32,000 bases of DNA from Faecalibaculum rodentium (GTDB lineage Bacteria; Bacillota_I; Bacilli_A; Erysipelotrichales; Erysipelotrichaceae), in the NCBI RefSeq assembly GCF_001564455.1, contig NZ_CP011391.1:2100001-2132000 (forward strand), read 5' to 3'. Shown here in pieces: positions 188 through 5,451 of the stretch. The notes under the pieces are model-generated. The model had not been told where the DNA came from and ran no database searches. It saw only the letters and a program-made list of their open reading frames with translations. The position numbers and the translations under genes were made by a program. How positions within the stretch are numbered: the first letter of the stretch is position 1; the number at the start of each line of letters is the position of its first letter.

Positions 188-3052
188 TCACCAACTCTCC
201 ACCACCATCTCCAGCAGCTCCGCAGCTGCCACTTTATCCTTCACCCGAATCAGATGGTTCCAGGCATCCTCCGGACCTAACAGGTTGATGCCGCCATCCC
301 ACACCAGTTCCCTGTCGATCACCGCAAACGGATCAACCGGATCATCCAGCTCCCGGACGGAAAAACCTGCTTCTTTCAACCGGCGGATCGCTGCATCCTT
401 GGTCCCTTCCCAGCCATCATCGGCAGTAGTGAAAATGACAACGTCCACTTCATTCCTGCCTTCCATAGCCTGAAGCACTTTCTCTGCCCTGGAAAGAGTG
501 ATGGCAGGACTGGAAATTACGACTTCCTTTCTGGACTCCCGGAGATCCTGGAGGAAGGCATCCAGATAGTTGTCCAGGTCGAATATCGCATTGACGGTCT
601 GGGATACCGCAGGATCTGTTGTCTGCAGCTGCCAGGCCGCCTTTTTGTATGTCTTCAGACGCTTTCGATACATCCCCTGGAATACCGGAATCCGCCGGTC
701 AATGTAGTCATATACCTGCACTGTCTTCTTTCCGGGGTAGTCCCTGTTCAGCCGGCCGAGGAACTGCAGAAGCAGCCCTTCAAAGGCAATGGGTGATACA
801 AGAAACAGGGTATCGAGCCGGGGATAGCTGAATCCTTCTCCGATTTTCTGGCCTGTGGCAATGATGAGAACTGATTCGTTGTCCGGAACTCTCTTCAGCT
901 GACTCAGCTGTTCCCTGTTCTCTTTCTCAGAGTTGTCTCCATAAACCAGGAACAGATGATCTGCACTTCCTTCCAGGTGTCTGGCCAGCGTGGCTGCATG
1001 TGATTTCAGCCTTACGAATATGGCACAGGTATGACCTTCTGCAAGGGCCTGACGGACATCACCTGCAATCAGTTCGTTTCTCACAGGATCCTGTGCAATG
1101 TATTCATACAGCTCGTAGATGGCTGGCTTTTCTTCCCGCAGGCAGAGGCTGCGGGTAAACCGCGGGATAAGGAGCCTCTGCAGGTTCTGGCTCTTCGCCT
1201 TATCCATGGCACTGTAGGTGTGCCGAATATCGCCAATGAACATGGTGATAAGAGGATCCAGCTTGTCCGCCCGTTTCGGTGTGGCTGTCATGCCGTAGAG
1301 ATACGCAGGAGAAATCCGGTCCAGGATCTTTCGAAAGGTCGGAGATGCTGCATGGTGGCATTCATCCACGATGACCATTCCATAGCGGTCAGGAATGGAA
1401 TCCATGTTTCCCAGTGTCTGTGCCATGGCGATATCCACAAGGCCTGTCATGGTGTTTTTGGATCCCTTCAGGACACCGATGTGGCTTTTTCGCCTTCTGG
1501 TTTTCCCAGCCTTTGTCCGATACTCCGGAAGGGGTTCATCAAATTTCAAAAACTCCTCCAGCTCTTGCTGCCACTGTTCCAGAAGTGCGGTCTTTTCAAT
1601 GAGAATCAGCGTATTGACCTTCCTGTGCGCTATCAGGCTGGCTGCCACAACGGTTTTTCCGAAGGAAGTGGCGGCAGAGAGAATTCCATAGTCGTATTTC
1701 AGCAGTTCTTCCTGCGCTGCCTGCTGTTCCTGTCGGAGCGAACCCTGGAATTCAACGCGAAGCCATGCTCCCTTTTGCCGTTTGTCTCTGATCCGATAGT
1801 CGATGCGGCTGCTTTCCAGCCGGTGTTTCAGCGTATCCCGTATTCCACGGGGCAGCCGGATATAGCCGTCCACATCGCTGCCGATATACAGGATGCGGGG
1901 TGTGTTCCAGTTGGAATATCCAAAGCGTGTGTTCTCATACCAGGCGGGATTTGCCATGGCTGCCAGATTCCGAATCTGATTCTGCAGTCTGGGATGGAGT
2001 GTGAGGGCATCTACATAGATGCCATCGGCGAGGATGATGGTCAGAGTTCCATAGACATCTTCGGGATGGAATTCACTGTTCTGCTTCCAGGGATCCGGGC
2101 GATACTGGCTAGTCATAGCCAGTCTTCCCGTCTCAACCGCAAGTTCCTGGCCCCAGGTTTGGATATACTGCTCCATTTGTTCTCTGGTGAGCTTCTGACA
2201 CTCTTTCATGGCCTGCCACTGGTCGGGGATGGCATTCCAGTGTTCATCCACAAACGCTGTGTTGCCTTCTGTCAGCGAAGCACCGTGGAGGGGCAGTGCG
2301 ATGAGACTGCCGAGATCCTCTGTCTGGTCCTGTGCGGGAAACATCCGGTCGTAACACTGGTAGGACCTGAGAGGAACCAGCTGGCTGCCTTTGTTCAGCA
2401 GCAGCATACCAAACTGCCTGGCTGTGGAAGCTTTGACAGGTTCCTTGAAAAAGATCCAGACATGAGATCCCTTTCCGGAACGGGATCTTTCCACAAGGCA
2501 GTTGATTCCCAGCTGGGTGCAGATCATCCGCAGGGTTTCAGCTTCCTTCCTCGTCTGGGCTGGATCAGAGGCTTCGCTGTGAGCGTCAAAGTCAAAAACC
2601 AGAAACCGGCAGGTCCCATCAGGATGCAGTGGATAGATTCCAACAGGATTTGAGGACCCCAGCAGATGCCGGAGCAGGATTTTAGGGTTGATTGCCTCCC
2701 AGCCCCTGTGCAGACACTTGCTGCAGGGAGATTTTGGATTCGTGTGTTTAGGACAGACGCCGGCATTCCAGCGATACAGACACTGGGGATACCATCCTCC
2801 GTTTTTGCCTCGTTTGGCGTACACATCCATGCGGCCCCAGAACATAGAAAAGAAGAATCGGACCATGTATTCGGTGATCCATGGAAACTGGATCCGGGCT
2901 CCCTGATCCGGATCTGTATCAGGGGCTGATGGCATGGGCACTGGCAAGGATATATCATGAGACTCAAGCTGTTTTCTTAATTGTCTGTTTTCCTGTTCGA
3001 GACTTCGATATTTCTTTGCGAGTTCAATCAATGCCTGTTGAAGATATTCCAT
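188..3052 (-). CDS. AEP (archaeo-eukaryotic primase-polymerase) domain fused to an SF2 DEAD/DEAH-type helicase plus an extra C-terminal domain. Conflict-system type protein; resembles what I recall RefSeq naming TOTE conflict system AEP primase domain protein.
   Basis: Single 977-codon ORF (188..3121). Coiled coil LEQENRQLRKQLE. Cys cluster CPKHTNPKSPCSKCLH. AEP motifs FLVFDFDAH and SRSGKGSHVWIFF. Helicase motifs AATSFGKTVVAA (Walker A), VIVDECHH (II), GMTATP (III), QFLGRLNR (VI). The start is uncertain: no SD precedes TTG 3121, ATG 3082 or ATG 3052. I chose 3052 because it opens the coiled coil. Confidence 0.85.
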   Translation of the reverse strand: MEYLQQALIELAKKYRSLEQENRQLRKQLESHDISLPVPMPSAPDTDPDQGARIQFPWITEYMVRFFFSMFWGRMDVYAKRGKNGGWYPQCLYRWNAGVCPKHTNPKSPCSKCLHRGWEAINPKILLRHLLGSSNPVGIYPLHPDGTCRFLVFDFDAHSEASDPAQTRKEAETLRMICTQLGINCLVERSRSGKGSHVWIFFKEPVKASTARQFGMLLLNKGSQLVPLRSYQCYDRMFPAQDQTEDLGSLIALPLHGASLTEGNTAFVDEHWNAIPDQWQAMKECQKLTREQMEQYIQTWGQELAVETGRLAMTSQYRPDPWKQNSEFHPEDVYGTLTIILADGIYVDALTLHPRLQNQIRNLAAMANPAWYENTRFGYSNWNTPRILYIGSDVDGYIRLPRGIRDTLKHRLESSRIDYRIRDKRQKGAWLRVEFQGSLRQEQQAAQEELLKYDYGILSAATSFGKTVVAASLIAHRKVNTLILIEKTALLEQWQQELEEFLKFDEPLPEYRTKAGKTRRRKSHIGVLKGSKNTMTGLVDIAMAQTLGNMDSIPDRYGMVIVDECHHAASPTFRKILDRISPAYLYGMTATPKRADKLDPLITMFIGDIRHTYSAMDKAKSQNLQRLLIPRFTRSLCLREEKPAIYELYEYIAQDPVRNELIAGDVRQALAEGHTCAIFVRLKSHAATLARHLEGSADHLFLVYGDNSEKENREQLSQLKRVPDNESVLIIATGQKIGEGFSYPRLDTLFLVSPIAFEGLLLQFLGRLNRDYPGKKTVQVYDYIDRRIPVFQGMYRKRLKTYKKAAWQLQTTDPAVSQTVNAIFDLDNYLDAFLQDLRESRKEVVISSPAITLSRAEKVLQAMEGRNEVDVVIFTTADDGWEGTKDAAIRRLKEAGFSVRELDDPVDPFAVIDRELVWDGGINLLGPEDAWNHLIRVKDKVAAAELLEMVVESW

Positions 3053-3282
3053 GGCTTTATGATAACAAGTTTGTGTCGTCATAATGCAAGAAAGCCAAAC
3101 CCTATGCCCTGTCCGGAGCAAAATGCCGGTTCTTTCTCAGGTGTCTGAATCTCTGCTATACTCAGGAAGACTCAGGAAAAATTGCTGCAACAGTAACGTG
3201 TGGATGCCTGTCGCCTGCTTTGGATAAAGCGGGTGAATCATGGCGTATCCCTGCTTCTGTGCAGAGCAGGAAAGAACAGTCC

Positions 3283-3513
3283 ATGATTTTAGATGATTTG
3301 AACTTTGACGATATTGATCTGGATGTTTTGTTTGGGCGTGATTATGATGGCAAGGAATTTGACATGACGGAATATGTCGGTGTATGGAATGGATATGATG
3401 TGTATCTCGGGTATGCAGATGGAGAAGATCATGTCCTGCTGGTCAAGGGGAAACGGGCGTGGTATCCCAACAGTATGGACCTCGATGAGATCAAATACAT
3501 CTTTGATCTCTGA
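3283..3513 (+). CDS. Small, strongly acidic hypothetical protein (76 aa)
   Basis: ATG at 3283 is preceded by aggaaagaac. The 97-aa ORF in the track begins at a TTG with no SD. Sequence MILDDLNFDDIDLDVLFGRDYDGKEFDM... has about 19 D/E against 6 K/R. It is transcribed divergently from the AEP-helicase gene, and a hairpin terminator follows at 3600-3644. Confidence 0.5.
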   Translation: MILDDLNFDDIDLDVLFGRDYDGKEFDMTEYVGVWNGYDVYLGYADGEDHVLLVKGKRAWYPNSMDLDEIKYIFDL

Positions 3514-3593: not shown

Positions 3594-3653
3594 GATTTTA
3601 AAAAGCCTGGCGCTTTCACCACCGAAGCACCAGGCTTGTTTTTATGAATCATT
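3594..3653. repeat. Hairpin repeat copy 1 (bidirectional terminator-like): A-run, stem gcctggcgcttt/gaagcaccaggc, T-run
   Basis: The sequence gattttaaaaagcctggcgctttcaccaccgaagcaccaggcttgtttttatgaatcatt is closely similar to 5396..5451. It is a 12-bp stem with one mismatch, flanked by A5 and a T-rich run, so it can terminate transcription on either strand. Confidence 0.7.
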
Positions 3654-3896: not shown

Positions 3897-4313
3897 TCAG
3901 GAATCCGATTTTCGTTCGAGCACAATATCATGATCCAGATCCAGACGACTGCAGTCAATGATTGGGAGCTTCACTTCCGATATTGTGTAGGATGTAATAG
4001 TCTGGACTGCCTCACGTACGTAAGGGAATGCAACAGCCATGAATCTTTTAATATGAGAGTTGATAGCATCAATATCATCTTCTTCAAAATCCCGAATCAG
4101 TCCCTCATCCTGCAGGGAAAAAATACTGGTAAATTCCATTGGAACTTCCTTGTCATGCTTTCCGCACAGCAAAATCTGGATCCCAACCGAGAGAAGGCGG
4201 TTTTTCCTTCTGTAATCATAACCGGTCACCCCTATTACAATTTCTTCGTAAGGATGTACTTCAGAGAGTTCATATTCAAGCTTTTCAAGCTTAAAATCCA
4301 AATAAGTAAACAT
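3897..4313 (-). CDS. SecB-like chaperone (third gene of a TAC toxin-antitoxin-chaperone module)
   Basis: 138 aa. The segment AVAFPYVREAVQTITSYTISEVKLPIIDC matches, by eye, the E. coli SecB region [29 protein letters not shown] (recalled from memory). The start lies 9 nt after the antitoxin stop and is preceded by gggggg. Confidence 0.7.
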   Translation of the reverse strand: MFTYLDFKLEKLEYELSEVHPYEEIVIGVTGYDYRRKNRLLSVGIQILLCGKHDKEVPMEFTSIFSLQDEGLIRDFEEDDIDAINSHIKRFMAVAFPYVREAVQTITSYTISEVKLPIIDCSRLDLDHDIVLERKSDS

Positions 4314-4322
4314 ATTCCCCCC

Positions 4323-4793
4323 CTACGCCTGCAGAAACACAGCTTGATTCTTAGCTCTGTCCACTGTCTCGACAGGTACGTATACATCAATCGCAGATGG
4401 TCTGCTTTGCCAGCTGTTTTCTTCAGATTCCCATTTCCCGATATCATAACAGTCAAGGGCATAGGCTCGAATCTTGTGACATTCTCTCGCTTCATCTTTT
4501 CGCTTAGGTTCAGTAACGGCGCTCTTCCTGAACTGGTACAACTCGCTCACCAGCTCGGGGTGTCGATCCAGCAGGTAAAGAGTCCTGCTGGCGGCTCCTT
4601 TGATTGGGTTGGCCCCCTGTTCCCATTTTTCAATGGTTTTTTCGCTTAGCCCCAGCATCTTTGCCATCATTCTCTGTGAAAGTCCCAGTTTCTGCCGAAG
4701 GGCTTTTGCAAAACTATTGGTCGTAATCTCTTCTGTGTTTGTAAACTCATTTTTACAAACAGGCATCTTTTTCAAAGCTTCTATATCAAACAT
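4323..4793 (-). CDS. XRE/HigA-type HTH antitoxin with a ~68-aa C-terminal extension (candidate chaperone-addiction region)
   Basis: 156 aa. HTH core FAKALRQKLGLSQRMMAKMLGLSEKTIEKWEQGANPIKGAASRTLYLL. The extra tail FRKSAVTEPKRKDEARECHKIRAYALDCYDIGKWESEENSWQSRPSAIDVYVPVETV... is rich in aromatic residues. SD gaggag lies upstream. Confidence 0.75.
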   Translation of the reverse strand: MFDIEALKKMPVCKNEFTNTEEITTNSFAKALRQKLGLSQRMMAKMLGLSEKTIEKWEQGANPIKGAASRTLYLLDRHPELVSELYQFRKSAVTEPKRKDEARECHKIRAYALDCYDIGKWESEENSWQSRPSAIDVYVPVETVDRAKNQAVFLQA

Positions 4794-4811
4794 ATTCTCT
4801 CCTCTAAATAT

Positions 4812-4832
4812 CTTCAGGTCTTTGACCTGAAG
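4812..4832. promoter_or_regulatory. Perfect 9-bp-arm palindrome cttcaggtc-ttt-gacctgaag between the toxin and antitoxin genes
   Basis: Read directly from the sequence. It lies in the 92-bp toxin-antitoxin gap, about 19 nt upstream of the antitoxin ATG and just 5' of its SD. It could be an RNA hairpin or a candidate HTH operator. Confidence 0.45.
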
Positions 4833-4885
4833 CAGTCAATCCACATCTTTCACGCCAGGGTTCCACTATTTTTTTCCGAAATCGG

Positions 4886-5311
4886 TCATTCTTTTTCACT
4901 GGCTTCCCGGACTTTCTCCAGGTTGCTGACCAATTTACGAAGCTGATTCTTCTCGTTGGATGTCAAATCAGTCTTCGGCTTCTTTCCTGCATGTTTATGA
5001 TAAATATGACAGATAAATGAAGTCTCGCAAAGAGCTGCAACCAGAATGATCCTGTATCCTCCACGTTTGCCACTATTGCGCTTTGGATCTTTGCAGCGCA
5101 TTTTATAAACAGCCAGATCCGAATATTTCTCTGACTGAATCAATCTGCTTCCAGAACGATCATTCTCGAGATCATCCGCTACATCCTGAAGTATCTGATT
5201 GTATCCTGACTGCCCAAGTCCCGTTCTCTTCAGATCTTTCTCCAGGTCAAACCCATAATCCTTCAGTTCCCGCAGGAGATCAGGACTGTCAAAAGTATCA
5301 GTCAGATTCAT
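4886..5311 (-). CDS. RelE/ParE-superfamily (HigB-like) toxin
   Basis: 141 aa. The motif VYKMRCKDPKRNSGKRGGYRIILVA...FICHIYHKHAGKKPKTDLTSNEKNQLRKLV is typical of RelE/HigB-type addiction-module toxins. It is the first gene of the toxin-antitoxin-chaperone order. Confidence 0.7.
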   Translation of the reverse strand: MNLTDTFDSPDLLRELKDYGFDLEKDLKRTGLGQSGYNQILQDVADDLENDRSGSRLIQSEKYSDLAVYKMRCKDPKRNSGKRGGYRIILVAALCETSFICHIYHKHAGKKPKTDLTSNEKNQLRKLVSNLEKVREASEKE

Positions 5312-5327
5312 AATCCATCCCCAATCG

Positions 5328-5358
5328 CCCTATTTAGTAGGGTATTCAAATCATACCA
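5328..5358 (-). promoter_or_regulatory. Candidate promoter of the TAC operon (extended -10 TGgTATGAT) followed by the small palindrome CCCTA-N5-TAGGG
   Basis: The minus strand reads tggtatgat at 5358..5350. The palindrome ccctatttagtaggg at 5328..5342 lies between the -10 and the toxin RBS. Confidence 0.4.
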
Positions 5359-5395: not shown

Positions 5396-5451
5396 GATTC
5401 AAAAAGCCTAGCGCTTTACTCCTGAAGCACCAGGCTCATTTTCTGTTCATT
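5396..5451. repeat. Hairpin repeat copy 2 (terminator of the FMN reductase gene)
   Basis: The sequence gattcaaaaagcctagcgctttactcctgaagcaccaggctcattttctgttcatt is a near-copy of 3594..3653, offset by 1801 bp. On the minus strand the hairpin is followed by ttttt directly after the stop of the 5451..6002 gene. Confidence 0.7.

Follow-up and report, generated by a model that had tools for sequence, protein, structure and literature searches.

The locus considered here lies at positions 3897–5311 of a 32,000-nucleotide stretch of Faecalibaculum rodentium DNA (below, the window), where the minus strand carries three co-oriented and tightly spaced open reading frames (ORFs) of 141, 156 and 138 residues. 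A spacer of 92 nt separates the first from the second, and the stop codon of the second is followed after only 9 nt by the ATG of the third. An earlier sequence-only reading had taken these genes for a toxin–antitoxin–chaperone (TAC) module. The ORFs indeed sit exactly at the coordinates that it gave, in that order and orientation, all the peptide strings that it quoted are found in them, and both figures that it gave for the third gene, the 9-nt gap and the 138 residues, are borne out. The host is a monoderm mouse-gut bacterium of the Bacillota, class Erysipelotrichia, and the Clostridia-like lineage named in that reading was thus wrong at the level of the class. In public records, the toxin and the 138-residue protein are identical to F. 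rodentium entries named 'hypothetical protein' (for the latter, WP_067559083.1 at NCBI), and UniRef lists the toxin as 'Addiction module toxin RelE'. For the antitoxin there is an entry with 99% identity, which bears the name 'helix-turn-helix domain-containing protein'. The features discussed below are collected in Table 1.

Table 1. Features of the module and its flanks (window coordinates; HTH, helix-turn-helix; ChAD, chaperone-addiction)
Feature	Coordinates	Strand	Basis
Toxin gene, 141 aa; distant HigB2/Gp49-like RelE-fold protein, putative ribosome-dependent mRNA endonuclease	4886..5311	-	ORF, profile, fold
Antitoxin gene, 156 aa	4323..4793	-	ORF
Antitoxin residues ~1-28, N-terminal segment, putatively toxin-neutralising	4710..4793	-	Position upstream of the HTH match
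Antitoxin residues ~29-88, HTH DNA-binding domain of Xre/MqsA-C-terminal type	4530..4709	-	Pfam, HigA-2 match
Antitoxin residues 89-156, 68-aa tail ending in FLQA, candidate ChAD segment	4323..4529	-	Comparison with homologues
SecB-like chaperone gene, 138 aa	3897..4313	-	AF2 model, Foldseek, PADLOC, hhalign
Candidate extended -10 element, TGgTATGAT	5350..5358	-	Read from the sequence (putative)
15-bp palindrome CCCTAC-TAA-ATAGGG, candidate antitoxin operator	5328..5342		Between the -10 element and the ribosome-binding site
Terminator-like hairpin and T-run, ending the upstream FMN-reductase gene	5401..5436	-	Sequence; conserved in L001 and L002
Terminator-like hairpin ~255 nt downstream of the chaperone stop, likely operon terminator	3597..3642	-	Second copy of the 46-nt repeat

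We begin with the toxin, whose ORF contains the string GKRGGYRIILVA. Its AlphaFold (AF2) model is of moderate confidence (predicted local distance difference test, pLDDT, 78; predicted template modelling score, pTM, 0.71) and consists of three helices at the N-terminus, then four strands and, at the C-terminus, a long helix (H10–18, H23–30, H33–49, E55–59, E67–74, E86–94, E97–106 and H118–140, with H for helix and E for strand). When this model is compared with the PDB by Foldseek, the best match is HigB2 (8a0x_C, prob 0.99), followed by the ribosome-bound RelE-like Cami1 and, at rank 3, by HigB1 of Mycobacterium tuberculosis (7nbu). The predicted structure has the RelE (BECR) fold, with the four-stranded sheet and the long C-terminal helix of the Gp49/HigB2 group; such a helix is typical of Gp49-like toxins, among them M. 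tuberculosis HigB-TAC (HigB1), S. pneumoniae HigB and V. cholerae HigB2 (PMC9098466). In sequence, the toxin is best described as a distant relative of the RelE family PF06296 and not as a curated member of it. An alignment of seven members, taken from relatives that adjoin homologous chaperones, yields a family profile that matches the structures of V. cholerae HigB-2 with an E-value of ~4e-4; five of the seven match PF06296 and four match Gp49, weakly in both cases. The toxin has no match among the PADLOC models. The RelE/ParE-type toxin of the sequence-only reading is accordingly supported by family profile and Foldseek, in the form of a distant HigB2/Gp49-like RelE-fold protein.

In the antitoxin, a DNA-binding domain is followed by a long tail. 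Residues 19–85 match PF15731 (MqsA_antitoxin) with 35 bits against a cut-off of 30, the match spanning profile positions 65–130 of 131, that is, the HTH half only, and the HTH_3 model is matched with 34.5 bits. Membership of the MqsRA systems was considered and rejected, since only this half matches, there are no CxxC pairs and no zinc ribbon, TIGR03830 stays below its cut-off and the toxin does not resemble MqsR. Among solved structures, the nearest to the HTH domain is V. cholerae HigA-2 (5jaa; E 3.7e-7, residues 30–85 against 45–100). The match begins at residue 29–30 in the HigA-2 alignment and stops at residue 85, in good agreement with the earlier placement of the domain end near residue 88 with some 68 residues beyond it. 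HigA antitoxins bind their toxins through an N-terminal region that occupies the same position as residues ~1–28 here, and we infer that toxin neutralisation falls to these ~28 residues. Since HigA-2 and HigB-2 are cognate partners, the toxin and the antitoxin lead, each on its own evidence, to one and the same characterised toxin–antitoxin (TA) family.

The third protein is more difficult to place. It has no match in Pfam (including SecB, PF02556), NCBIfam or PHROGs, and searches of the PDB sequences with the protein by phmmer, and with the profile of its 24-member family, gave nothing relevant. Its kinship is revealed only through fold comparison and the PADLOC model of CmdC. The AF2 model (pLDDT 85, pTM 0.80) is of the beta4-alpha type, with four strands and then a long helix, and the only strong Foldseek matches in the PDB are E. 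coli SecB (1qyn), M. tuberculosis Rv1957 (5mtw) and H. influenzae SecB (1fx3), each with prob 1.0, ~135 aligned columns and a template modelling (TM) score of 0.52–0.59. The second of these, 5mtw, is the TAC chaperone Rv1957 bound to its ChAD peptide. Against BFVD, the top Foldseek matches are phage proteins named SecB. The sequence-only reading had made itself dependent on a similarity to the SecB fold, and this similarity is found, the top PDB matches being all SecB or Rv1957.

Sequence profiles place the family in the same surroundings. PADLOC model PD-T4-9_C, which corresponds to CmdC, the SecB-like chaperone of CmdTAC, is matched by the window protein with an E-value of 1.9e-4 and by 19 of the 24 family members, at best with 6.5e-10. 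A search against PF02556 had been put forward as a check and gives a divided answer: the window protein does not match, while eight of the 24 members do so weakly (best E 0.002, gathering threshold not reached). When the family is aligned by hhalign to E. coli SecB (sequence from the annotated K-12 record), the segment FPYVREAVQTITSY-TISEVKLPIIDC is aligned with P 2.5e-4 and a probability of 43%. This is exactly the FPYxRE...LP segment that had been said to mirror SecB, and the observation holds. The third protein is thus predicted, from its model and from these profiles, to have the SecB fold and to be a relative of the TAC chaperone CmdC. Its family is small, because an exhaustive profile search of 1.84 billion protein representatives finds only 22 relatives (a word-indexed search finds 6), and tblastn of the chaperone against phage and plasmid collections gave no match.

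It could be argued that the 138-residue protein serves the cell generally, as an export or holding chaperone of the SecB type, and stands beside a TA pair by chance. The SecB fold itself would agree with this, and SecB-like genes do occur sporadically in Firmicutes (PMC3581621; PMC4257090). However, PF02556 is not matched and the nearest relative in sequence is a TAC chaperone model, the few members of the family always lie beside a TA pair, and their distribution is patchy, in variable or prophage regions, with a monoderm host in the present case. We consider this explanation highly improbable. Assignment to the housekeeping SecB family was likewise rejected on the missing Pfam match and on the gene being always TA-linked and in variable regions, and not a solitary core gene.

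The gene order was then compared across the loci that hold relatives of the chaperone, whose identity runs from 89% down to ~20% (the taxonomy of these relatives is taken from the source names of the records). Ten loci include sequence on the toxin side, namely L001, L002, L004, L007, L009, L012, L014, L024, L025 and L026. An HTH gene of 139–157 residues lies directly upstream of the chaperone gene in all ten, and a toxin gene of 129–162 residues lies upstream of the HTH gene wherever the contig reaches far enough. At an eleventh locus, L003, the contig ends inside the antitoxin gene, and the antitoxin of L004 had been called as 115 residues from a wrong start, the full ORF having 156. The most divergent triad examined (L025, 2174–3441) is in a prophage, between RusA and terminase/portal genes, which is a typical 'moron' position.

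Two further sets of loci, in which the chaperone gene is missing, are in line with this linkage. In F. rodentium prophages, a tail-less antitoxin homologue of 95 residues, whose 84% identity extends to the N-terminal segment, overlaps with the stop codon of a 374-residue AcrVA2-like gene (L017 4001–4288, L018 2522–2809 and L019 2759–3046). No remnant of a RelE-like toxin or a SecB-like chaperone is detectable near it, and it may be an Aca-like regulator or belong to a different TA pairing. In Erysipelotrichaceae bacterium 51-3 there is a decayed module (L020–L022, 3885–4342) with no chaperone, of whose toxin gene only the final 24 codons are left and whose antitoxin breaks off at residue 113. 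That tail and chaperone were lost jointly, along with most of the toxin, is consistent with a dependence between the two, and both the synteny and the co-occurrence of tail and chaperone support a functional coupling.

The tail, into which the string YDIGKWESEENSWQSRPSAIDVYVPV falls, runs for 68 residues beyond the HTH domain, the point where homologues of 92–104 residues stop. Counting the window, tails are present in 11 of 11 chaperone-linked antitoxins, with lengths of 49–69 residues and 4–10 aromatic residues each, and seven of them end in hydrophobic-x-Ala (FLQA three times, and CLLA, SYFA, NYFA and QYLA). Conservation among four relatives is very uneven: 60 of the 88 positions of the N-terminus and HTH domain are invariant, compared to only 7 of 68 in the tail, although W121, Y138 and the terminal Ala are among these seven. 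C-terminal ClpXP degrons ending in Val-Ala or Ala-Ala have been described for M. tuberculosis HigA1 and for CmdA, not for E. coli HigA, and the hydrophobic-x-Ala ends recall those of the former two.

At this point, an ordinary two-component pair of the HigB2/HigA2 type has to be considered, in which the SecB-fold gene would be an accessory with other clients or a separate sensor, and the tail would be regulatory or oligomerising. The TA unit does resemble V. cholerae HigBA2, which is functional as two genes (PMC5105189), and the few invariant positions of the tail would also fit. Against this, none of the ten other loci breaks the linkage of the triad, the tail is found in every chaperone-linked antitoxin and missing where there is no chaperone, CmdC, to which the chaperone family is homologous, is an antitoxin stabiliser (PMC11618068), and the gap between the antitoxin and chaperone genes is only 9 nt. 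The two-component explanation is therefore judged to be unlikely.

We have also considered whether the module could be inactive or domesticated, with a toxin that lacks RNase activity and genes that persist as a transcriptional regulator with passengers. The toxin is divergent and below the Pfam threshold, non-toxic HigB paralogues exist in M. tuberculosis (HigB2 and HigB3; PMC9098466), and the decayed copy described above is found in a related species. However, the ratios of nonsynonymous to synonymous substitution rates (dN/dS) speak another language. Between the window and L002 they are 0.17 for the toxin, 0.02 for antitoxin residues 1–88, 0.34 for the tail and 0.13 for the third gene, with 0.08–0.13 as the range for the chaperone. 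All parts are thus under purifying selection, which means that the genes are real and not chance ORFs, and that they are expressed and constrained, the tail least. Compared with L001, the toxin is identical at 141 of 141 residues. Furthermore, basic and aromatic residues of the strand/loop region (K70, R72, R78, R87, Y104, H105, K110 and K113) are invariant across the toxin family, which would be compatible with an active RNase. A domesticated module is, in our judgement, quite improbable.

Taken together, the toxin fold, the HigA-2-like HTH domain with its tail, the SecB fold and the synteny support the TAC organisation that had been proposed, and by architecture and homology we are confident, short of certainty, that the locus is a TAC module. 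A number of points weigh against this assignment and should be kept in mind. The toxin reaches only 22.8 bits with PF06296 (E 1.1e-4, residues 68–136), below the cut-off of 27, and its fold match is modest, with TM scores of 0.45–0.56 and a Foldseek E-value of 5.5e-3. The chaperone of the window has no Pfam SecB match of its own and its match to CmdC is marginal. As for the tail, its six aromatic residues (9%) are unremarkable; the proportion is high for a disordered tail and average for proteins generally, and the earlier description of the tail as rich in aromatics was mildly overstated, the residues being there at an ordinary density. Disorder of the tail is suggested only by poor conservation and length variation, and four of the 11 tails lack the C-terminal Ala motif.

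As to how the module would operate, chaperone addiction is the most likely mode, by analogy with the characterised TACs (PMC5105189, PMC6377645, 10.1101/2024.02.24.581848, PMC11618068). The individual steps are drawn from M. tuberculosis HigBA1-SecB^TA, E. coli HigBAC and CmdTAC. The operon would be transcribed from its own extended -10 promoter and probably autoregulated by the antitoxin HTH domain at a CCCTAT-N3-ATAGGG palindrome. The toxin, a presumed HigB2-like ribosome-dependent RNase, would be neutralised by the N-terminal segment of ~28 residues. Through its tail, the antitoxin would be prone to aggregation or proteolysis unless a tetramer of the SecB-like protein binds aromatic anchors, for which W121, W128 and Y138 are candidates, and the hydrophobic-x-Ala C-terminus (FLQA) may serve as a ClpXP-type degron. 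If the chaperone is titrated by an unfolded client, such as a structural protein that a phage has just produced, the antitoxin would be lost, and the freed toxin would then cleave mRNA on the ribosome, such that growth stops or the infection is aborted.

The module may act in phage defence, a role in which TACs are known (PMC9519451). One can go further and propose a phage-sensing system for abortive infection in a monoderm gut commensal, with the tail and the CmdC-like chaperone as an exchangeable 'sensor' and the toxin and the antitoxin N-terminus as the 'warhead'. This more specific proposal is put forward tentatively, and we would not wager on it at even odds.

A comparison of the window with L001 and L002 bears on this division. 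Over the stretch that begins at the toxin ATG and ends at window coordinate 4737, L001 is of the window type, with 98 informative sites against 3, while from 4703 to the chaperone stop it is of the L002 type, with 122 informative sites against 1. The breakpoint thus lies at 4703–4737, corresponding to antitoxin codons ~19–30, and it is clean, which indicates that the toxin and the antitoxin N-terminus travel together and that the HTH domain, tail and chaperone do so as a second unit. Such a division agrees with the picture of TACs as built from 'warhead and sensor' modules. It is important to point out, however, that a single event between physically adjacent segments is weak evidence for modular units. 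Within the 5' end of the antitoxin gene there is also a perfect 10-bp inverted repeat (TGTTTGTAAA-N6-TTTACAAACA, 4736–4761), which abuts the breakpoint and is not kept in L004.

We next consider the regulatory sequences. Upstream of the toxin, four loci share the conserved block GAATATGnTAyGAT, L004 among them despite its otherwise unrelated upstream DNA, and the palindrome is kept as CCCTAy-N3-ATAGGG in L001, L002 and L004, where it reads CCCTAT. From their sequences, we infer that the extended -10 element and the palindrome are the promoter and the antitoxin operator. A consensus promoter scan gave nothing above what shuffled sequence would yield and did not call the extended -10 element, conserved as it is, and a scan of the window against Rfam found no RNA family. 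The spacer between toxin and antitoxin holds a perfect 9-bp stem with a 3-nt loop (CTTCAGGTC/GACCTGAAG, 4812–4832), just upstream of the antitoxin ribosome-binding site; it was dropped as a candidate regulatory element, being kept in L001 but not in L002 or L004.

The terminator-like hairpin on the upstream side separates the module as a transcription unit of its own. A hairpin of ~46 nt is in fact present as a direct repeat, at 3597–3642 and 5398–5442, whose copies are 1800 nt apart, 79–90% identical, and bracket the cassette; only the upstream copy occurs in L001 and L002. The repeats could be boundaries of a module insertion or a reused terminator element.

Beyond the cassette, the adjoining gene (188–3121, minus strand) encodes a 977-residue protein with an AEP-TOTE primase (PF22548, E 7.5e-75) and a superfamily 2 helicase (ResIII/DEAD), which also matches models of CRISPR-associated PrimPol. 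At the same chromosomal site, L001 has a DUF2513 gene, an HTH gene and an AAA_11/30 helicase in place of the primase-helicase. With different cargo at the same site, the TAC module borders a variable island, which is probably defence-related. An ORF of 97 residues on the plus strand (3220–3513), possibly a gene, converges on the cassette and matches no family of Pfam, NCBIfam, PADLOC or PHROGs.

TACs are an established class, with addiction dissected in M. tuberculosis and phage sensing through the chaperone shown in E. coli. The locus is a previously unannotated and very divergent member, and it reveals no new mechanism. Nor is it the first example outside diderms and actinobacteria, as the sequence-only reading would have had it; this was overstated, since a survey in 2012 found TAC/AC systems in seven phyla and already lists a firmicute, Caldicellulosiruptor (PMC3581621). 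What the locus adds is a divergent clade in gut Erysipelotrichaceae and prophages, with ~22 cluster representatives among the 1.84 billion proteins, whose three proteins are 'hypothetical' or generic HTH proteins in public records and whose chaperones are missed by curated SecB models. It would offer a convenient test case for chaperone addiction and chaperone-based phage sensing in monoderm Bacillota. If the phage-sensing proposal is true, the range of chaperone-mediated phage sensing would come to include Bacillota, through a family that surveys based on Pfam do not pick up, and the exchange of toxin and sensor in L001 would correspond, in nature, to the hybrid TAC engineered by Mets et al.

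Finally, the module can be compared with the systems that are already known. With the M. tuberculosis TAC (HigB1-HigA1-SecB^TA, Rv1955–1957) it shares the order of the genes, a RelE-fold Gp49/HigB2-like toxin with a long C-terminal helix (PMC9098466), an HTH antitoxin whose aromatic-containing C-terminal extension ends in an aliphatic residue and Ala, and a SecB-fold chaperone, 5mtw being among the top matches of the 138-residue protein. However, no significant sequence similarity to Rv1957 was found, the identity in the structural alignment being 15–18%, the tail is longer (68 residues versus ~45) and unrelated in sequence, and the host is a monoderm gut bacterium.

The anti-phage system CmdTAC of E. 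coli (PD-T4-9) has a chaperone, CmdC, that is homologous in sequence to the present family, and is likewise a three-gene operon with a long and variable antitoxin tail; the relatives of the module are found in mobile or prophage contexts. CmdT, however, is an mRNA ADP-ribosyltransferase and its antitoxin is not of the HTH type, whereas here the pair is RelE-fold and HigA-2-like. Membership of CmdTAC was for this reason rejected, the toxin not being an ADP-ribosyltransferase and only the chaperone being shared. HigBAC of E. coli NT1F31, which senses gpV of phage lambda, also combines a HigBA-type TA unit with a SecB-like chaperone. Its recognised features are aromatic anchors in a long disordered ChAD, and its role is that of a prophage-borne defence. 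That ChAD has 96 residues and four regularly spaced aromatics, compared to 68 residues here, where only W121 and Y138 are kept among close relatives. With canonical SecB (PF02556), the third protein has in common the fold and the FPYxRE...LxP motif at the start of the long helix, but it stays below the Pfam threshold, and its gene, which belongs to a monoderm host, is not a core gene and is accompanied by a TA pair in every case.

As for the TA unit, both the toxin and the antitoxin HTH domain have their nearest solved relative in V. cholerae HigB-2/HigA-2, in which the toxin gene also comes first and HigA-2 also has an N-terminal segment followed by the HTH domain. The difference is that HigA-2, with its 103–104 residues, ends right after the HTH domain and that there is no chaperone gene. 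When a ChAD is grafted onto HigA2, the antitoxin becomes chaperone-dependent (Bordes et al. 2016, PMC5105189). By analogy, the present module, in which a HigB2/HigA2-type TA unit is paired with a CmdC-like chaperone, looks like a natural version of this laboratory construct.

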